A stretch of DNA of 64,000 bases, from the NCBI GenBank assembly GCA_023248545.1, contig JAHFEF010000002.1, forward strand, positions 14,908 to 78,907, in the 5' to 3' direction. Numbering within the stretch: the first letter of the stretch is position 1; each line of letters opens with the position of its first letter. This stretch comes from Myxococcales bacterium. GTDB lineage: Bacteria; Myxococcota; UBA727; JABDBI01. Of this stretch, positions 623 through 51,725 are shown piece after piece. A program made the position numbers and the translations under genes. A model generated the notes under the pieces. The model was given only the letters and a program-made list of their open reading frames with translations, was not told the origin of the DNA and did not search any database.

Positions 623-3117
623 AGAGTCTCCCAGGATATCGAAAGTATGCGTCGGCCTCTTTGTGTTAACACATTCAGGTCACCCAATGCTTGCGCGCGC
701 TTAACCATATTGAAAGTATAGGTTTTGCCTGGGATTGGAAGGTCTTTTTGGGGTTCGCTCACCACTTGCAAAAATACACCCGTATTAGGACCACCTTTGT
801 GCAACTGGCCAGTCGAATGCAAAAATCGTGGTCCAAAGCCCAGTGTAGTCGCGACTTTTTTGGAATCTCGTATTTTTATGCGTAGTTTTTGCAAGATTTG
901 CTGGGTTTCTGCGTTCATGGGCACAAAGGCTTGAAGGGCAAAATAGTCGCCGGGTTTAATTTGGGCGAGCAGGCTTTCTAGTGTTGGGGACTTGCCTGCC
1001 GGAGCTTTGGCGTAGGCAGGATTTTCCATTAATCGCCGTGCTTCTACTTTAGCCGCTTCGACGTCAGGTTGATCAAACGCGTTAATACCCAATATTTTTC
1101 CAGCCAAAGCCGTCGCGATTTCCCAACGGTAAAACTCAGCGCCGATGTGAATCAAATCTGGCACTTCGATTCTAATTACGGGATGTCCCGCGCGTTCTAA
1201 TTTTTCAACCGCTGTTTCTAAAGAGCTATCACCGGCCAGGTGCATGTACACAAAAGCGCGATCGGAGCCATACACGCCAGGAGTGCCGACGGGCTCACCG
1301 ACGATTGGAATTAACCCTTTGTTTTGTTTTCCGGTAGACTCTGCGAGAAGCTGTTCGATCCAGTCTCCTAGGTGTGCGAGTTTTTCTGGGGCGATCAGTG
1401 TGACTTTGTCACGGCCTTTCAGGGCCAGTTGCCCTAAAGACAGCCCCAAACGTGCACCTGGGTTTTCTCGAGGTTTTAAGCTTTCACAGGCCTCGCGCAT
1501 GGCGCATGCATGTTGCAAAAGCGTCTGGGTATCCACGCCCATGAGCTGTGCTGGCACTAGACCAAAATTAGACAGCGCCGAGTAACGCCCACCGATAGAT
1601 TTTAGGCCGTAATAAATCGCCCCAAACCCGCGTTGTTTTGCAATTGCTTCAAGCTGCGATCCTGGATCTGTGATCGCGATAAAATTTTTAGGATTTTTAG
1701 ATTTCTCAAAAAAATAATCCATAAAAATATTGGGTTCAAGTGTGCTTCCCGACTTGCTCGACACGATAAATAGTGTGTTTTTGAAATCAAGTTGTTTCTC
1801 TGTTGCTGCGATTTGTTCAGGATCGGTAGAATCGACGACATAGAATTTCGAAGCGTCTTTGAAAGGCCCTAGGGTTCTATTTAAGACGTCTGGGGCCAAA
1901 CTGGATCCGCCCATTCCGAGCAGCACCACGGCGCTGGTCGACTTGTCCACCGAAGCCTTGGCGTAGGTGGAGGTCACCACATCCAACCACCCCAACCAGG
2001 CATTGGTTTTTTCTTCTTCCCAGAGGTTTTCGATTTCGGTGATTTTGGGTGGGTGCTTGGCTTCGATCGCTGCGAGCATTTTGTCGAAAGGCTCTGAAAA
2101 CAGCTTGATGCCGTCACTTAAGAGTGAGGCCGTGACTTGCTTGAAAGAAACTCCAGCCTGCTTGAGCTCATCCATGGCTTTTGTGGCTTCCGATAAATCA
2201 GCTTCGAGCGTATTTTTAACCTCGCCATGATCTAAAAATGCTTGATAGGTTGCTGGCGGAATCGTATTGACTGTATTGGGACCGATTAACTGCTCGACGT
2301 AGAGCACATCGCGATAGGCTGGATTTTTGGTGCTGGTGCTGGCCCAGAGGAGACGCTGGGTTTGTGCTCCAGCCTTGGCAAGCTTGGCCCAGCGGGGGCT
2401 CGCATAGAGCTCTTGATGATACTTGTAAGTCAGCTTGGCATTGGCGATGGCGATTTTGCCGGCTACTTGTGGGGCCATTTTATCAACCATCGAATCAATG
2501 CGGCTCACAAAAAAGCTGGCCACGCTGGCGATATGGGCAATCTCAAGACCTTGTTTGACTCGAGTTTCAAGACCCTTGATAAAAGCTTCGGCTGCTTGCG
2601 CATATAGTTCTTGGGCAAACAATAAAGTGACGTTGATATTGATGCCGTCAGCAATTAGCTGCTCAATGACAGGGATACATTCGGGGGTGCCTGGAACTTT
2701 AATCATAATATTAGCGCGATTGACGCGGGCCCAGAGGCGTCTGGCTTCCGCGAGTGTTCCTGCTGCATCCAGCGCCAAATGCGGCGAGACTTCCAAACTC
2801 ACGTAACCATCTAAGCGTTTTGTTTTTTGATAAGTTTCTGCAAAGATATCAGCTGCGTCTTGGACGTCTCTAATTGCCAGAGCTTCGTATAAATCAACCG
2901 GTCTTAAAACCTGCTCTTGGTTAAGCTTACCGAGAAAATCATCATATTCGTTACCAGATGTGACAGCTTTTTCGAAAATCGCAGGATTGGATGTAACCCC
3001 ACGTAGACCTTCTTCGTCGACCATGCGTTTAAGCTCGCCCGACGTGATGAGGCTACGTTGAATAAAATCAAGCCAGACCGATTGGCCGGCTGCTGCCAAT
3101 TTTTGAAGAGAGTTCAT
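607..3117 (-). CDS. Bifunctional transaldolase / glucose-6-phosphate isomerase
   Basis: 836 aa. The N-terminal ~350 aa is transaldolase-like (SVWLDFIQR, TSNPAIF, IKVPGT). The C-terminal half is PGI-like (sugar isomerase, SKSGSTLE, GGRYS). It overlaps the gnd start by 16 nt, so this looks like a pentose-phosphate operon. Confidence 0.85.
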   Translation of the reverse strand: MNSLQKLAAAGQSVWLDFIQRSLITSGELKRMVDEEGLRGVTSNPAIFEKAVTSGNEYDDFLGKLNQEQVLRPVDLYEALAIRDVQDAADIFAETYQKTKRLDGYVSLEVSPHLALDAAGTLAEARRLWARVNRANIMIKVPGTPECIPVIEQLIADGININVTLLFAQELYAQAAEAFIKGLETRVKQGLEIAHIASVASFFVSRIDSMVDKMAPQVAGKIAIANAKLTYKYHQELYASPRWAKLAKAGAQTQRLLWASTSTKNPAYRDVLYVEQLIGPNTVNTIPPATYQAFLDHGEVKNTLEADLSEATKAMDELKQAGVSFKQVTASLLSDGIKLFSEPFDKMLAAIEAKHPPKITEIENLWEEEKTNAWLGWLDVVTSTYAKASVDKSTSAVVLLGMGGSSLAPDVLNRTLGPFKDASKFYVVDSTDPEQIAATEKQLDFKNTLFIVSSKSGSTLEPNIFMDYFFEKSKNPKNFIAITDPGSQLEAIAKQRGFGAIYYGLKSIGGRYSALSNFGLVPAQLMGVDTQTLLQHACAMREACESLKPRENPGARLGLSLGQLALKGRDKVTLIAPEKLAHLGDWIEQLLAESTGKQNKGLIPIVGEPVGTPGVYGSDRAFVYMHLAGDSSLETAVEKLERAGHPVIRIEVPDLIHIGAEFYRWEIATALAGKILGINAFDQPDVEAAKVEARRLMENPAYAKAPAGKSPTLESLLAQIKPGDYFALQAFVPMNAETQQILQKLRIKIRDSKKVATTLGFGPRFLHSTGQLHKGGPNTGVFLQVVSEPQKDLPIPGKTYTFNMVKRAQALGDLNVLTQRGRRILSISWETLCKLE

Positions 3118-3179
3118 CTCCCCAATATAGCTCGAACAGTGTCCCGCGCCAATATCTAGCTGTGCTGATATTAAATATT

Positions 3180-4304
3180 ATGACAAACGCCTATATTGCC
3201 GCCACTGGAATTGCTGTTCCGCCTGCTGTTCCCACGGAAAGATTTTTAGAAATCGATCAAAAATACCGAGCCAGACATGGCCAGAGCCGTGAAGTGCGGG
3301 ACATGATCAGGCAATTTGTTGAAAATGCACAAATCAAACAGCGGCATAGTGTCTGTTCTGGTTGGTTCCTGCCAGGAACTAATTCAGAGGGCTATGAAGA
3401 CATATTTACAGAGTATGACTACGATCCACCAGCGTACTTAAGGGCACGATATTGGCATGAGCAAGCTCCTAAAATGGCGATTCAAGCGGCTCAAAATATG
3501 CTGGCTCATTGGTCTGGGAGTGTGGCTGATATTACACATGTTGTGACGACATCTACTTCAGGTTGGGCTGAGCCAGGGATTGCTGTTGAATTGATTGAAG
3601 CACTCGGTTTGTCAGAAGACACGCGTAAGATCGAAATTAATATCAATGGCTGTTTTTGTGGCGCGAGCTGTCTTAGAACTGCGCGCGATATTATTCGAGG
3701 AGGCGAAGCTAAAAATGTCTTAGTGGTTGCAACAGAGCTTGCTTCTATACAGTATAATATGCTCGAAACTGATGTCTCACAGTTGATATCGAGCTCTTTG
3801 TTTGCCGACGGTGCGGCAGCAGCAATCGTCTCGGCTGAAAATTCAAAGGGGGCGTGGGCTTTTGATAAAGCTGGCATGTCATTGGTGCCAGGCAGCAAGC
3901 ACATGCTCAAATTAAACCCGGATTTTGAAAAAGAAGCGACGGCTGTTAAGATGTTTCTACACCAGGGTGTTTCTAAAGCACTGGCTGGCTATTTTCAGTC
4001 AGGACGAGGTCGTGGCTTGTTGGATGATATTCTAAAAGACGCGCCCAGTTACCCAGCATTGGCAGTTCACCCCGGTGGGCCGAATATCTTAGACGGCATG
4101 AATGGTGTTTTGTTAGAACGCGGTTGGCCAAAAAATTGCTTAGACGCGTCGTATGCGACGCTGCATGAAACAGGTAATTTGGGCTCAGCAGCCGTATTAT
4201 TTGTTTTAGATCGCTTGATGCGCGAGACAGAAAATAGGAAAATGGCCTATTTTGCGTTTGGTCCCGGCGTCACAGTGGAGTGGGGAAGTTTGAGCAGCGT
4301 TTGA
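3180..4304 (+). CDS. Type III polyketide synthase (chalcone/stilbene synthase family)
   Basis: All three catalytic-triad contexts are present: Cys in NGCFCGASCLRTA, His in AVHPGGPNILDG, Asn in HETGNLGSAAVLFVLD. The ORF-track start at 3162 is a GTG; the first ATG is at 3180 (MTNAYIAATGIAVP). The gene is divergent from tal-pgi. Confidence 0.85.
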   Translation: MTNAYIAATGIAVPPAVPTERFLEIDQKYRARHGQSREVRDMIRQFVENAQIKQRHSVCSGWFLPGTNSEGYEDIFTEYDYDPPAYLRARYWHEQAPKMAIQAAQNMLAHWSGSVADITHVVTTSTSGWAEPGIAVELIEALGLSEDTRKIEININGCFCGASCLRTARDIIRGGEAKNVLVVATELASIQYNMLETDVSQLISSSLFADGAAAAIVSAENSKGAWAFDKAGMSLVPGSKHMLKLNPDFEKEATAVKMFLHQGVSKALAGYFQSGRGRGLLDDILKDAPSYPALAVHPGGPNILDGMNGVLLERGWPKNCLDASYATLHETGNLGSAAVLFVLDRLMRETENRKMAYFAFGPGVTVEWGSLSSV

Positions 4305-4320
4305 TGATTAAAGAGAGGAT

Positions 4321-7300
4321 ATGAAACTCTCTGCTGATCATATATTGGCCCCCCTGTTTGAACTGGCTCAATCTGACCCGAATCGGGTGGTTTTTACGTT
4401 TGTAGATGATCAGGGCCAAGATGTTGAAGTCAGAACAGCATCACAGATGGCTGACCGTGCTCAAAGTTTGGCATATTATTTGCTCGACGGTTGTGGGCTC
4501 AAGCCAGGCGATGCGGTGCTATTGGTGTATCCGCCTAGTCTTGAGTTCATCGACGCATTTGCGGCCTGTATGTTGGCAGGATTGGTGGCTGCCCCGGTCT
4601 ATCCCCCAAATTTGGCACGACCTGAAAGTGATCTTGCCAGACTGGAGTTGGTGGCCAAGGCTTCAAACGCCAAGGCTATGTTGACGAACCGAGCCTATCG
4701 CTGGGGCGTTCGGTTAAGCTTCAAAGGCCGATGGCCTTCTCTTCCTTGGATTGTCACCCACCTGCGCCAAGGTTTTGATGGGCAAGCGAAGGGGGAAATT
4801 GAAAATCCAATAGCGCTTCTCCAATTTACTTCAGGCTCGACGTCAACTCCAAAAGGCGTTCGCATCACACATGCCAATTTGAGGCACCAGCTTTCACTCT
4901 ATCGAGAACAAGTTTCTGTCGACGAAAGCATTCGTGGCGTCATGTGGGTGCCGCAGTACCATGATTTAGGTCTTATCTGTGGAATTACGGCGGGTTTACA
5001 TGCCCAAGGGTCCTACTGGATCCTCTCGCCGTTTTCTTTTTTAAAAAAGCCAGCCGTCTGGTTTGACGTAATTAATAGAGTTCGAGCCACACACACAGCG
5101 TCGCCCAATTTTGGTTTCGAGTTGGTCACGCGCAAGACAACGCTCAAACAACGAGCCTCGTGGGACTTAAGTTGTCTCAGGCTGATATTGAGTGCCGCCG
5201 AGCCAATTGTTCCCCGTACAATGGATGCTTTTTTTAAAGCCTTCGAAGTATCGAAATTATCTCCTCAAGCTTTTTATCCGGGTTATGGTTTGGCAGAGCA
5301 TGCTGTAGGTGTGACGTTTGGCGGGCAGCAGCGCTTTAAGTTGAATCGTCAAAAGATGTTAGAAAACCAACAGGTTGTTTTTGATGACAACGGTCTAGAA
5401 ATTACCGGTTGTGGTAAGCCTTATGGGGATATTAAAGTCCGCATTGTCTCATCCGAGGGCAAACAGGCATTGCCCGAGGATCAAATCGGCGAGATTTGGG
5501 TGCAGTCTGCCAGTGTCGCCGACGGTTACGAAGGCAATCCAGAAGCCACACAAGAAGTATTCAAAAACGTATTGAGCAACGAGCCCGGGTTTTGGCTGAA
5601 AACAGGCGATTTAGGTTTTCTGCACGGGGGCGAATTATTTATCACGGGTCGCCAGAAAGACCTGGTGATTATTCGAGGCCGCAATATTCACCCTGAAGAT
5701 ATTGAAGAATCTCTACGCTATGCACATCCAGCGATTCGACCCGGCGGCTTAGCGGCGTTTGCAGTGATGGGCGAAGCCACTGAAGAACTAGCAGTTTTAA
5801 TCGAAATCGACGACGCGAAGCACGATCAAGCACCTGAAGCACTTCAGGCAGCTAAACACAAATTAGGTGAAACTTGGGGCTTGCAGGCTCGACTGATTGC
5901 TGTGCCAACCAAGACCGTCAAAAAAACAACGAGTGGCAAAATCCAACGCTCGGCCAACCAAAAAGCGTTTTTAGCAAACCAGATCAAAGAACTCGGTATT
6001 TTAGAGCCACAGGAGCAGGCTAGGCCAATTAATTTCGACGAGCCCTTGTTTGAGCAAATATCAGAAATACCCGTCGAAGAACGTGTTGATTGGTTGATAG
6101 CCGGTATGCAAGCGATTGTTTTAGGCAAGCTATCGAATGAGGTGACACAGGTTGGCCCGGATGATTTTTTGCCGAACACAGGATTAGATTCTCTGGCCAG
6201 CGCCGAGTTATTACAGCTTTTAGAAGAAAAAACAGGCCAAACACTGCCCAGCACCTTGTTTATCGAATATCCCACATTGCGCAAAGCAGCGATGCGCGTG
6301 TTGAGCATTATCGGAGTCGAACACACTGGAGAATTGGCAGTTCCTGATCTTGAACAGCCATTGGTCTATCGACCACCGATTCGCTCCATGCTTCCTGGGA
6401 AAACGCGGATTGGGATCGTGGGTGGCGGCGTCGCTGGGTTGGTGTCTGCCTATGAATTGGCAAAGCTTGGCTACAAGCAAATCACGTTGTTCGAATCCGA
6501 AGCCAACTGTGGCGGCAAAGTTTTGACGGAATATCGTGATCAGGAAGCCATCGAGTTGGGGCAGAATTTTTTTGTGGACTCATTTTCGACGGTGATTGGC
6601 CTGGCCAATGAATTGGAATTGCCATTAAATCCTGCCGACAATACATTCCAACAGTGGACGCCGGATGTTGGTTACGAAGAGGGCCCCGCCCGAAAGCCGT
6701 CGCGCATTTGGATGCGTAACCTTGCCAAGGCTGGGCGTGTTGAATTAAATCCTCGATTGGGTTTGCCCGTGTTGCTGGAGGGTCGCGAAGAGCCATTTTC
6801 AAGTTTCATCAAGCGTCATCATTTAAGTGTCCACCCGATGTTCTATTTTGATTGGAATGCCATGGGGTATGGCTTTGATCTCGAAATGCCGGCTTGTTAT
6901 GTTCTCGCTTATCTTCAACACGTAGGAAGCAGCAGCAACGTTTGTTATTTGCCGAACGGAAATCAACAACTTTGGACAACATTGGCTGAGCGTTTGGAAA
7001 AAACTTGGGGTGTTCAAATTCGACGTGGCCACAAGGTGAGCAGCATTCATCCGACTGAAACGGGTGTTTTGATCGACCAGGAGCATTATGACGAGGTAAT
7101 TTCGGCGGTTCCGCCGGATTTATTGGCCTCATTGCTGCCCCAAGAAGATCCGCTGCAACCCCTATTGGAGCAGTTTGAATACATGGGTTATTCGATTCAT
7201 GCCATCAAAGCGAAGGGTTTATTTGAAAAGGGTGCTGTATTGTTTCCGGAATGGGCGAAGCAACAGGGACCACTGGTAACGATGCAAGCATGTGTTAAGC

Positions 7301-15838: not shown

Positions 15839-15913
15839 TGGGGCGTAGACAAGCGGTAAGTCATTGGTTTTTGATACCAACATGCGAAGGTTCGAATCCT
15901 TCCGCCCCAACCA
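15839..15913 (+). tRNA. tRNA-Gln (anticodon UUG)
   Basis: Folded by hand. Acceptor stem TGGGGCG/CGCCCCA, D-stem GAC/GTC with loop AAGCGGTAAG, anticodon stem TTGGT/ACCAA with loop TTTTGAT (anticodon TTG), T-stem GAAGG/CCTTC with loop TTCGAAT, discriminator A, encoded CCA. It resembles E. coli tRNA-Gln, including the UGGGG 5' end. Confidence 0.85.
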
Positions 15914-29012: not shown

Positions 29013-30827
29013 TTATAGGCGGCAAACCCGTTTTAAGCGACAGTCTGAACAAGAAGTTTGAATATCGGCCGGTACATGGCCCTGTAACACCGGTTCTAAC
29101 AAAGCTTGCAACGCTTGATCTAACTCGGGCAAGCGATCGGTCATGTCGATCAAGGGTCCTGGGGCGCCGTCTCGAATAGATATGGGGTAGCCAAGAAGTT
29201 GTTTGTGTGACCCTAACGCTCTCAAATAAATAGGTATCTGAAAATGCGTTTTCAAGATTTCTTTCGAAGCAAAGCGCATTCGAAGAGCACTCAAGGCGGA
29301 TAATTTATAATCAACGACGATTTGAGCCTCTGGGTTTGTATCAACTCGATCGATCACGCCGCCAATGTGAATTTTGTCCGTGCCGACCAAAAGCTCAAAC
29401 GACTCTGGTCGGTGTTCAAAAAATACGGGCTTAGCGTTCGCAATGGGCGGATTTTTTTCCAAATTAGATACCAGTCGCCGAAGCGCTTCACGAAGCCAAA
29501 GCAGATTGGCTCGCCATACACCTGGATGCGTGTCTTTGGGATCTGCCTGTGCAAGCGTGAGCTGAATCTCTTGGCCATCACGATAATATTTTTCGAGTGC
29601 CTCGTGTGCCACCTGACCCAGGACACGCATATCGATGTCGTGTCTTGCCGGGGGACTCAGATCGATTTTCAACAGCTTTTCAACAAATGCCCGAAAGCGA
29701 CACTGCGCAAAAGCTTCTATTCGGGTGGCGCTCAGTGGCTTTTCCGGATTTAAACCCAATAGATCGCCAAATTGTTTTCGAAAACGAATGGGATCCAACC
29801 TCACCCCTAACCCCTCTCCACCCAGTGGAGAGGGGAATTTTTGGGAACGTTTAGCAGCCTGAAAAACTTGCTCCAGCTTATTAAGCGGTCTGTTTAACTG
29901 AGTAATTCCCTCGTTTTCGCTGAGCCAATCAAGTTTCGCTAATTCGCTCATGGTCTGCGCCTGACCACTTTGATCCAACGCCGAGCTGGTCAAAACTAAA
30001 AACTTGGCCGCGCTACAAGCCCCCAAAAACCACATGGGCTCAAGTGCTTGCTTGGCTGGGAACAAACTGGGTTCTAGCAGGTCTTCTTCGAAGCGCCGTA
30101 AAACTTGATGACCCATGAGACAATTAATCTCAAAGCAGTCAGAATCTCGCAGTGGCCAATCTGGTTCGCGTGAAAGTGTCAGACGCCCATGTGCACAGTC
30201 GGCAATCACCACCCCATCCAATTGCTTGCCCAGCAAATCGGGTAGCGCCAAAACTGGCGTGTCCAACTCATGTGCACGCAGGGCATCTCGAAATATCAAT
30301 GCTCTTTTATCCAGCACACGCATTGCGACGGCAATATTTTTATCCCGACCGTAGCCAGCCACAACTTGGGCCACAAAACGTGCTTCTTGCACCAAGTCCG
30401 GCGCTTCATAACGCACCAGGCGCTCTGGTTTTACGAACGGCTTAAAGATAATTTCCAAGTTTTTTAAGTCATGATGCTGTTCGATTCGATGGGCCAAATA
30501 GGTAATGGGCAAACTCAATCCGTGGCCTGATGAATCTACTGGAAACTCAAAACGAATTTTGACACCCAACTCCGCCAGTCTAAACAAATAGGCCAGTTCG
30601 AGTTCGCTCAAATCTACCCGATTTGAAATCACCAGGTGATCAAAGTCAGGCTTTTGGGTGAGTGCCTGATAGGATCGTAAAAAATCTAAACTTTGATCCG
30701 GCTGGTGCTCAAGCGCTTGGAGCGGGGTTAGAATTTCACGCAAACGGGGCGAAAGCCCCGGCTTGGCCAATATTTCGCTCGGAGAACTTAAGCCATGAAT
30801 CAGCGCCCGAAAGAGTTTTAGCGTCAC
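29013..30827 (-). CDS. PD-(D/E)XK nuclease-family protein with an AddB/Cas4-type iron-sulfur nuclease domain and no helicase motifs
   Basis: 604 aa. The C-terminal ~230 aa carry SATRIEAFAQCRFRAFVEKLL (compare SxSxLExxxxCPxxyF), GGVIDRVD, IVVDYKLS (E/DxK) and a terminal CSDCRLKRVC (C-x2-C-x5-C). This is the 4-Cys 'iron staple' of AddB-type nucleases. The stop is 7 nt before the pqqD-like ATG. Confidence 0.65.
   Translation of the reverse strand: MTLKLFRALIHGLSSPSEILAKPGLSPRLREILTPLQALEHQPDQSLDFLRSYQALTQKPDFDHLVISNRVDLSELELAYLFRLAELGVKIRFEFPVDSSGHGLSLPITYLAHRIEQHHDLKNLEIIFKPFVKPERLVRYEAPDLVQEARFVAQVVAGYGRDKNIAVAMRVLDKRALIFRDALRAHELDTPVLALPDLLGKQLDGVVIADCAHGRLTLSREPDWPLRDSDCFEINCLMGHQVLRRFEEDLLEPSLFPAKQALEPMWFLGACSAAKFLVLTSSALDQSGQAQTMSELAKLDWLSENEGITQLNRPLNKLEQVFQAAKRSQKFPSPLGGEGLGVRLDPIRFRKQFGDLLGLNPEKPLSATRIEAFAQCRFRAFVEKLLKIDLSPPARHDIDMRVLGQVAHEALEKYYRDGQEIQLTLAQADPKDTHPGVWRANLLWLREALRRLVSNLEKNPPIANAKPVFFEHRPESFELLVGTDKIHIGGVIDRVDTNPEAQIVVDYKLSALSALRMRFASKEILKTHFQIPIYLRALGSHKQLLGYPISIRDGAPGPLIDMTDRLPELDQALQALLEPVLQGHVPADIQTSCSDCRLKRVCRL
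29797..29836 (-). repeat. Palindromic element, copy A (about 40 bp; 10-11 bp stem CCCCTCTCCAC/GTGGAGAGGGG), inserted in-frame in the nuclease-like CDS
   Basis: Plus strand: aacctcacccctaacccctctccacccagtggagagggga. Its reverse complement is ~85-90% identical to copy B at 51482-51520. In the nuclease-like protein it encodes FPSPLGGEGLGVRLD. Confidence 0.6.
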
Positions 30828-51128: not shown

Positions 51129-51725
51129 TTGATTCTCATCCTGGCGTTATTAAAACCGCTGGGTCATGATATCGCTTTTATCGTGGCTTTTGTGTATCAG
51201 CTGTATGTTCCATTATGGCTAGGCTACACAGTTCGATTACAACCGGATGCTTTGAAAGCGGATTTAATTCGAGTCGCCTGGATTTCTGTCGTGACGTTCT
51301 CTGGCTACGCTTTTGCTTATTATTGGTTTCAGCATTTTTGGGCGGCGCATCAGGGCTATCAAGTTTACTTTCATCCGGTGTTTTCTTGGAGTTTGCTTTG
51401 GGGCTTTGTGGTCAATCTGGCTATTATCGCCTTTCCTGAAGAAGTATTTTATCGAGGCTATCTCCAGAGCCGCCTTTTAAGTCCCTCTCCACAGGGTGGA
51501 GAGGGATTTAGGGTGAGGTTTGTGATTCTGTTTGTTAGCTTTCTCTTTGCCCTGGGCCACTTTGTGGGCGAGTACGACCCAGTTCGCCTGCTCCCCTTCT
51601 TTCCTGGTTTAGTTTTCTCGTGGCTTGTTTATCGCTCGGGCTCTATCGCAGGCGCGACACTTTATCATGCCCTTTGCAATAGTTTCTCGGAGTGGTTAGC
51701 GTCCAGTTATCACTGGAGCCACTGA
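51129..51725 (+). CDS. CPBP-family intramembrane metalloprotease (CAAX protease/Abi)
   Basis: 198 aa. EEVFYRGYL (motif 1), FALGH (motif 2), HALCN (motif 3). TTG start as called in the track. Contains the in-frame palindromic element (SPSPQGGEGFRVR). Confidence 0.7.
   Translation: MILILALLKPLGHDIAFIVAFVYQLYVPLWLGYTVRLQPDALKADLIRVAWISVVTFSGYAFAYYWFQHFWAAHQGYQVYFHPVFSWSLLWGFVVNLAIIAFPEEVFYRGYLQSRLLSPSPQGGEGFRVRFVILFVSFLFALGHFVGEYDPVRLLPFFPGLVFSWLVYRSGSIAGATLYHALCNSFSEWLASSYHWSH
51482..51520 (+). repeat. Palindromic element, copy B, inserted in-frame in the CPBP protease CDS
   Basis: tccctctccacagggtggagagggatttagggtgaggtt: stem CCCTCTCCAC/GTGGAGAGGG, 3 nt loop, then tail TTTAGGGTGAGGTT. Encodes SPSPQGGEGFRVR between CPBP motifs 1 and 2. 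Confidence 0.6.

Follow-up and report, generated by a model that had tools for sequence, protein, structure and literature searches.

Two palindromic repeats within genes of a Myxococcales contig as members of the BoxC / PIT / TM_ECO family, with DUF559 nucleases as possible partners

How does nearly the same palindromic sequence come to lie, in one orientation and one reading frame, within two unrelated protein genes of the same bacterium? This question is raised by a stretch of 64,000 nucleotides (hereafter the window) from a Myxococcales bacterium (assembly GCA_023248545.1, contig JAHFEF010000002.1, positions 14,908 to 78,907), in which a unit of about 40 nt occurs once in a gene for a PD-(D/E)XK nuclease family protein (copy A) and once in a gene for a CPBP / Rce1-like intramembrane protease (copy B). 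A preliminary description of this DNA had likened the pair to the Rickettsia palindromic elements (RPEs), small selfish palindromes that colonise coding sequence in frame. Judged by sequence comparison, the two copies belong, in a register-shifted form, to the known BoxC / PIT / TM_ECO family and are not a new repeat. Based on the findings below, we postulate that they are solo BoxC-type repeats, that selection acts as a filter on copies within genes, and that a DUF559 endonuclease is the agent behind them; to this explanation as a whole we assign a probability of roughly 0.7. Its parts differ in strength: the family identity together with the selection filter is very probable, while DUF559 as the most likely agent copying and maintaining the repeats is a tentative proposal.

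The two palindromes lie where the preliminary description had placed them, in unrelated genes (Table 1). Read in gene orientation, the core of copy A is TTCCCCTCTCCAC-TGG-GTGGAGAGGGG-TTA-GGGGTGAGGTT and that of copy B is AGTCCCTCTCCAC-AGG-GTGGAGAGGGA-TTT-AGGGTGAGGTT, with 34 of 38 core bases identical (89%), in agreement with the 85-90% first estimated. The pattern CCCTCTCCAC-N3-GTGGAGAGGG matches the window exactly twice (29812-29834 and 51483-51505) and has no match in 100 dinucleotide-preserving shuffles of it. Relaxed and fuzzy searches of the 64 kb revealed no additional or decayed copy beyond A and B, and a pattern with a 4-nt loop (N4) found nothing in the window because the loop, once given as 3-4 nt, is of 3 nt. 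The translations confirm a shared orientation and frame, yielding FPSPLGGEGLGVRL and SPSPQGGEGFRVRF, peptides of the form PSP(L/Q)GGEG(L/F)(G/R)VR: copy A encodes (F)PSPLGGEGLGVR(L) at about residues 331-344 of its host protein, and copy B encodes (L)SPSPQGGEGFRVR(F) at about residues 117-131. At the gathering threshold, an Rfam search of the whole window returned the tRNA at 15839-15910 (+) as its sole match and none for the element; a permissive Rfam scan of the element gave only chance-level similarities to Pab91, U4 and microRNAs, far below threshold.

Each copy consists of an 11-bp GC-rich hairpin with a 3-nt loop, followed by a 3-nt spacer, a 9-nt G-rich block and a trailing TT; the stem of copy B reaches 15 bp if AAGT/ATTT is counted. 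The third block mirrors the second arm of the hairpin (GGAGAGGGG/GGGGTGAGG in copy A, GGAGAGGGA/AGGGTGAGG in copy B). The hairpin of the preliminary description is present, yet the element is no simple palindrome, as a conserved G-rich block stands 3' of it. By direct reading, both copies offer nine triads of the C.G*G, T.A*A or T.A*T type, which is a three-block architecture.

BoxC is also said to have been described by Bergler in 1992 and by Bachellier in the 1990s. Repeats earlier called BoxC or PIT were described under the name TM_ECO by Holder et al. 2015, and also treated by Hoyne/Maher 2000, with the pattern CCCTCNCCC-N3-6-GGGNGAGGG-N3-GGGNGAGGG, one mismatched triad being allowed and the second loop defining type A (TTA) or type B (CCG) (PMC4666352). 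According to the same source, E. coli MG1655 carries 23 copies, all intergenic, and 262 proteobacterial genomes carry 3610; triplex motifs rich in G/C abound in some cyanobacteria; and TM_ECO forms a triplex in vitro, with neither a function nor a nearby mobility gene reported (PMC4666352). A literature search with peptide strings (GEGLGVR and similar) gave nothing relevant, while DNA strings led to the papers on BoxC and triplex motifs.

The E. coli mrcB-hrpB spacer holds CCCCTCTCCC-TTGA-GGGAGAGGG-TTA-GGGGTGAGGG, followed after 18 nt by an inverted copy of type B, and one copy lies in the yraQ-dolP spacer. Over the stretch that runs from block 2 through block 3, copy A has 20 of 21 bases in common with the mrcB-hrpB copy, as well as the TTA spacer. 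A blastn search of E. coli genomes with copy A gave identities of 85-89% over 37-41 nt at these two spacers, with E-values (0.09-0.3) that are weak because the query is short. A regular expression for the strict TM_ECO pattern matches two E. coli loci (L053 and L277) and neither window copy, since the C runs of the latter are split 4+2 and not 3+3, and the stem continues with AC/GT. Both window copies fit the shifted version [CT]CCCTCNCC-N7-GGNGAGGG[GA]-N3-[GA]GGGNGAGG. This mismatch with the strict pattern, taken together with the shared spacer and bases, identifies them as a register-shifted variant of the family. Unlike the motif of E. coli K-12, which is intergenic, both lie inside open reading frames (ORFs).

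Comparison of the host genes with their homologues bears on whether the copies were inserted there. Copy B occupies the loop that joins the EExxxR helix to the FxxxH helix of the CPBP protein. None of the 18 full-length homologues in the alignment, which are 37% to 76% identical, has the segment; a nineteenth sequence that carries it (P0001, 99% identical and shorter at the N-terminus) is the same protein. Where the window protein reads QSRL[LSPSPQGGEGFRVRFV]ILF, other homologues read QSRL[SS]ILV, and at the DNA level the site has 16 codons in the window against two in the relatives L164 and L165. Deleting exactly 51479-51520 (42 nt) gives the orthologous length. The alignments show a lineage-specific gain of 42 nt in this gene. 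In an AlphaFold2 model the insert forms the loop 117-124 and the start of the helix 125-148, where pLDDT values are 65-72; in the core they exceed 90.

Copy A is placed in the variable linker immediately N-terminal of the PDDEXK_1 domain. A 79%-identical orthologue has an unrelated linker of 15 residues, compared with 16 in the window. Copy A has either replaced a hypervariable linker or been inserted with a deletion thereafter; a net insertion cannot be demonstrated because the orthologous linker is about as long, unrelated in sequence and without a clean boundary. The lineage-specific insertion that had been proposed for both genes is consequently upheld for the CPBP gene and not for the nuclease gene. 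Each host gene probably remains functional and tolerates an insert of 14 residues. One relative (L164) has a double-armed copy in its M16-CPBP spacer that the window lacks, which indicates that copies are gained and lost within the clade; comparison of the relatives' repeat loci with the window provided no useful additional syntenic empty site.

We also observed in-frame peptides of a different repeat type in homologues of the same two proteins: one in the nuclease orthologue P0062, in the linker aligned to window residues ~325-345, and one at the N-terminus of the CPBP homologue P0009 (IPAKAGIQ...LRWHD and CPGLDPGAGMT). These suggest that a second small repeat family also colonises both genes, at the same permissive places.

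The preliminary description had named an assembly artefact or an ancestral protein motif as what would undo it. In favour of either we can cite nothing except the in-frame reading. Homologues of both proteins lack the peptide, and the resemblance of the copies is one of DNA (89%, with a perfect palindrome in two unrelated genes). An artefact is excluded because identical copies occur in independent assemblies of other samples, copy B in L001 (ENA ERZ27280021) and copy A in L169 (ENA ERZ27276474). We regard this explanation as already contradicted and hardly tenable.

The family is multi-copy, as had been expected from two copies in one window. Genomes of GTDB species were scanned for the strict variant CCCTCTCCAC-N3-GTGGAGAGGG-N-TT-N3-GGTGAGG, which was found at 107 or more loci. 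Among the matches listed, the closest named relative is the metagenome-assembled genome (MAG) ELA443 (GCA_037134495.1), with at least 14 copies and with host-protein orthologues 72-79% identical to the window proteins; a second MAG bearing ELA443's NCBI label has at least 15. Other matches listed come from Polyangium, Anaerolineae, Dehalococcoidia and many Chitinophagaceae, and one Chloroflexota MAG exceeds 30 copies. The sub-variant with C4-TCT-C2 and AC/GT recurs with hardly a change in MAGs that bear the labels Myxococcota, Chloroflexota, Bacteroidota, Elusimicrobia, Spirochaetota, Acidobacteriota (Thermoanaerobaculia), Planctomycetota and Zixibacteria. A loose three-block pattern retrieved 50 IMG/VR loci, in GC-rich as well as AT-rich DNA, among which the upper stem co-varies (CCC/GGG, CAC/GTG, CTT/AAG).

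In ELA443 and the second MAG of that label, 3 of 14 and 4 of 15 copies among the matches listed (7/29) lie deep in long ORFs; the remainder, judged by the spanning ORF, are intergenic or at gene ends. Bacterial genomes are usually mostly coding. If this holds for the two relatives, these counts imply a depletion from coding DNA, and a family that is mostly intergenic tolerates coding sequence instead of preferring it. The proposed in-frame colonisation of coding sequence is thus real where it occurs, although most copies are found elsewhere. Pfam confirmed genuine in-frame hosts: the editing domain of leucyl-tRNA synthetase (LeuRS; L261), TruB (L177), CoaBC (L233), a cytochrome c assembly (CcsA-like) protein (L263) and an M19 dipeptidase in five Chitinophagaceae species. 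The common frame and orientation of the window copies had been noted in the preliminary description. Four of the six frames of copy A are free of stops, and related copies use all four (PSPLGGEGLGVR, PLSTGWRGVRGEV, NLTPNPSPPSGEG and TSPLTPLHxVERG), which makes the shared frame unremarkable.

Several loci of the relatives deserve separate mention. A Chitinophaga MAG has, at a contig end (L223, 3955-4068), three tandem copies exactly 39 nt apart in a long ORF. At many loci of the Chloroflexota MAG Centralia_MAG_208 (L180, L199, L217, L253 and L274 among them), a longer unit is conserved, ..accggtccagactc-[repeat]-taaactac.., and from these conserved flanks the repeat is part of a larger composite repeat there. 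A multi-copy family of ORFs of ~200-230 aa, with an HTH_36 / MarR-like helix-turn-helix, was met in the MAGs CAZWPE (L170, L243, L249, L271) and ELA443 (L222). In all four CAZWPE members the repeat occupies one and the same internal site, in frame (..CKTYALQA-PSPLGGEGLGVRF..), the ELA443 member terminates in the repeat peptide, and some members have two or three repeats. This ORF family may be mobile or of plasmid type, and was considered as a candidate mobilising gene. ELA443 loci, at ~44% G+C, also encode a TLC-type ATP/ADP translocase and an ankyrin-repeat protein (L167, 14201-15433; L165, 4503-6017), gene content that is odd for the label Myxococcaceae and hints at a host-associated lifestyle.

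With the family and its hosts in view, membership in the RPEs becomes very improbable, and we consider it already contradicted. What speaks for it is behaviour alone, namely that of a small hairpin-capable repeat residing in frame in unrelated genes. RPEs are reportedly roughly 100-150 bp long (Ogata et al. 2000), whereas the present unit has about 40 nt; its sequence matches E. coli BoxC / TM_ECO instead, its hosts are free-living, environmental lineages of many phyla, and its conserved third block lies outside any palindrome. The behaviour first inferred is nonetheless real, the repeats forming a family whose members do reside in frame within genes.

A clue to a possible mobilising agent came from genes for DUF559, a Vsr-like PD-(D/E)XK endonuclease domain. 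In a Dehalococcoidia locus (L272), a free-standing DUF559 gene stands between two inverted repeats, of which the right-hand one equals copy A except for the 3-nt loop. In a Chitinophagaceae MAG (L235, JANMBO010000011.1), a LeuRS ORF of 1141 aa (1162-4584, minus strand) remains open across an inserted unit of ~165 residues that comprises a repeat, an in-frame DUF559 domain and an inverted repeat; it resembles an endonuclease gene lying in frame within an essential gene, with no intein. We then considered 80 metagenome loci selected solely by DUF559 similarity, the nearest kin of repeat-flanked DUF559 queries. In 45 of these, a three-block repeat lies no more than 200 nt from the domain. The density of repeats, 3.76 per kb at 0-100 nt, drops to ~0.05 per kb at distances above 400 nt. 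The commonest layout in this set has a repeat upstream and an inverted repeat downstream, with third blocks facing the gene; two-sided inverted layouts were seen in L272, L235 and 18 metagenome loci. The two repeats flanking a gene are more alike than repeats of different loci (0.86 vs 0.75).

E. coli provides a parallel. The stop codon of the K-12 DUF559 gene ycjD lies within a degenerate copy of the repeat, and a canonical BoxC follows downstream in the ycjD-fabI spacer. BoxC is reported to have been first described beside envM, which is fabI. At this locus (L277, 5205-5475, minus strand) we also noticed that the 3' end of ycjD, with the degenerate BoxC hairpin, is partly duplicated ~60 nt downstream, ahead of the canonical BoxC; the partial duplicate looks like a remnant of a second cassette. 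Cassette L303 combines a type A repeat upstream with a type B repeat downstream. The five repeat pairs of E. coli have exactly this composition and resemble the cassette stripped of its gene (PMC4666352). Compared with E. coli genomes, L303 matches at its repeat ends only, and its gene is absent from them. Among 5426 complete E. coli genomes, 3377 carry ycjD. The gene is reported from phylogroups A, B1 and C; in B2 and others eefRABCD takes its place (PMC12817139). TM_ECO counts are 19-30 in strains of A, B1 and C, 1-2 in B2 and 6-15 in the listed D, E and F strains (PMC4666352).

Collectively, these associations point, tentatively and at somewhat less than even odds, to BoxC repeats as non-autonomous partners of a selfish DUF559-endonuclease cassette whose E. 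coli representative is YcjD. Such a cassette would carry one repeat at each end, inverted; loss of the gene would leave paired repeats, from which solo repeats such as the two in the window would derive in turn. Across many phyla, the nuclease would both homogenise the repeats and place further copies elsewhere, ORFs included. For the window, the repeat would be a selfish, non-autonomous element that can land anywhere, copied and maintained by a DUF559 gene elsewhere in the genome, a gene typically bracketed by two inverted repeats, much as REP sequences bracket a RAYT gene. Copies surviving in genes would be those that keep the frame, offer a stop-free frame and fall in a tolerant loop or linker, and their translation would yield a Pro/Gly-rich peptide, here PSPxGGEGxxVR, that has no function in itself.

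Several observations weigh against this explanation, first of all against its DUF559 step. No DUF559 gene occurs in the window, where both copies are solo, or within ~4 kb of the 29 copies in the two relatives. None of 12 DUF559 loci on viral contigs has a repeat, and the metagenome set, being kin of repeat-flanked queries, may represent one subfamily only. The E. coli counts track ycjD, but the correlation is confounded by phylogeny and comes down to one phylogenetic event, and 11 TM_ECO copies are nonetheless present in O157 strains that lack ycjD. The layout agrees just as well with the reverse reading, in which repeat pairs are sites into which DUF559 genes home. The genes would then be parasites or passengers, as some insertion sequences are that target REP, and the repeats would be spread by an unknown transposase, by template switching at hairpins or by gene conversion. 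The cassette layout is indeed that of an E. coli repeat pair with a gene in its spacer, only 2 of ~270 loci selected by the repeat have a DUF559 gene, viral DUF559 genes go without repeats, and two opposite layouts exist, with third blocks inward or outward. Set against this are the failure to find any other candidate enzyme beside the repeats, here or in PMC4666352, the E. coli counts that follow the presence of ycjD, and the LeuRS gene of L235, where the entire cassette with both repeats forms one unit. We judge the passenger alternative rather unlikely, if not by far, and retain DUF559 as the provisional agent.

Other objections concern movement and selection. The nuclease copy brings no net gain of length, so an insertion is undemonstrated there; no target-site duplication (TSD) was seen, the junctions of the CPBP copy sharing only TT, and no movement event has been observed. 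The M19 dipeptidase copy (L172, L216, L239, L254 and L262, Chitinophagaceae / Bacteroidota MAGs) is 92.6% identical across five species, against 76-77% for its coding flanks, with stems and third block invariant, a conservation beyond pure junk that calls for concerted evolution or function. Its 3-nt loop is inverted in one species (GGA vs TCC), as if the hairpin had flipped.

This conservation argues for a repeat kept for a function in cis, whether as a DNA triplex, cruciform or G-quadruplex affecting replication, recombination or supercoiling, or, at the level of mRNA, as a hairpin delaying ribosomes as they pass from one protein segment to the next; intragenic copies would then be under selection. 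Co-variation fits such a function, since joint block changes are those expected of base triads: from copy A to copy B the bases before block 1, after block 2 and before block 3 switch together from C/G/G to T/A/A, and among 300 distinct family members this triple is C,G,G in 249 and T,A,A in 31 (280/300), mixed triples being rare (Fisher p ~1e-42 for block 2 against block 3). The hairpin expected in the mRNA strand is stable by predicted folding of the sense RNA (copy A, -28.8 kcal/mol, z -2.0; copy B, -31.4 kcal/mol, z -4.8), and a hairpin is predicted on both DNA strands of both copies. TM_ECO oligonucleotides form triplexes in vitro, and TM_ECO loci are more rearranged among strains (PMC4666352). 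Against a cis function, the repeats lie beside and within unrelated genes that share no functional theme, in either orientation and in four frames (for E. coli, PMC4666352), close relatives have apparently functional CPBP genes without the copy, and no promoter, terminator or polymerase-blocking effect was seen in vivo (PMC4666352, citing Maher and colleagues). The co-variation may reflect two inherited subfamilies instead of repeated compensation. G-quadruplex motifs have been described in E. coli in a preprint (bioRxiv 10.1101/032615); by direct reading no more than three runs of at least three G occur in the window copies, so that a canonical G-quadruplex is not conserved, and we do not rely on that reading because four such runs are lacking. 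A cis function is on balance improbable, and we favour solo BoxC-type repeats under a selection filter.

Table 1 Features of the two repeat copies and their host genes in the window
Feature	Coordinates	Strand	Sequence or remark
Host gene A, PD-(D/E)XK nuclease family protein, 604 aa	29013..30827	(-)	PDDEXK_1, residues 365-603
Copy A, whole unit, ~42 nt	29797..29838	(-)	ATT-CCCCTCTCC-AC-TGG-GT-GGAGAGGGG-TTA-GGGGTGAGG-TT, gene orientation
Copy A, block 1, C-rich arm	29827..29835	(-)	CCCCTCTCC; predicted hairpin arm
Copy A, upper stem AC/GT around loop TGG	29820-29826	(-)	
Copy A, block 2, G-rich arm	29811..29819	(-)	GGAGAGGGG; pairs with block 1
Copy A, spacer	29808-29810	(-)	TTA; as spacer of E. 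coli type A (PMC4666352)
Copy A, block 3	29799..29807	(-)	GGGGTGAGG; mirror of block 2
Host gene B, CPBP / Rce1-like intramembrane protease, 198 aa	51129..51725	(+)	
Copy B, whole unit, 42 nt	51479..51520	(+)	AAGT-CCCTCTCC-AC-AGG-GT-GGAGAGGG-ATTT-AGGGTGAGG-TT
Copy B, block 1	51482..51490	(+)	TCCCTCTCC
Copy B, block 2	51498..51506	(+)	GGAGAGGGA
Copy B, block 3	51510..51518	(+)	AGGGTGAGG; 3' of spacer TTT

For the window itself the consequence is modest. BoxC is a classic repeat family of E. coli whose function, origin and mobilising enzyme have been unexplained since the early 1990s, and the same motif now appears, nearly letter for letter, in eight or more groups whose labels are those of different phyla or classes. 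With copies in frame in housekeeping genes such as LeuRS, TruB and CoaBC, it repeatedly supplies proteins with short Pro/Gly-rich inserts, and it probably yields many spurious small ORFs in annotations. Its tight clustering at DUF559 genes names a candidate enzyme, which is testable in E. coli K-12 through ycjD. In the literature searched we found no report linking DUF559 or YcjD to repeats, and it yielded neither the intragenic habit across phyla nor the DUF559 association, the two points that make the finding worth following.

Among known systems, MITEs, the miniature inverted-repeat transposable elements, are likewise short, non-autonomous, hairpin-forming and dispersed, and those of bacteria occasionally lie in frame within genes (review PMC10969869). 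The present element is much shorter, has no terminal inverted repeats apart from its hairpin, shows no TSD and has no parent insertion sequence. RPEs are similar in outcome, as small repeats in protein genes that leave the frame intact and add a short peptide in tolerant regions. They differ in length, the window unit of 39-42 nt being about three times shorter, and in sequence and taxa, and the repeats described here have an additional non-palindromic block and are mostly intergenic. If the DUF559 link holds, the system would resemble REP/RAYT (REPtron), with a gene of one or few copies bracketed by inverted GC-rich hairpin repeats and many solo and paired copies scattered over the genome. 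The associated protein would differ, being a predicted Vsr-like PD-(D/E)XK enzyme (DUF559) and not an IS200/IS605-type Y1 transposase. In REP sequences, moreover, the palindrome carries GTAG or CGTC at one of its ends (PMC3733652); both tetranucleotides are missing from the ends of the two window copies.

BoxC / PIT / TM_ECO itself differs from the window copies in register (C3-TCN-C3 as against C4-TCT-C2, with the stem extended by AC/GT), in the fourth G3 run of its proposed G-quadruplex, which the window copies lack, and in location, the E. coli motif being always intergenic whereas both window copies and about a quarter of those in relatives are in ORFs. The likeness extends over the whole element: a C-rich block with a TCT core, a loop, GGAGAGGG, a 3-nt spacer and GGGTGAGG, with a third block that mirrors the second, in a family that is multi-copy, dispersed, present in either orientation and in part arranged as inverted pairs.

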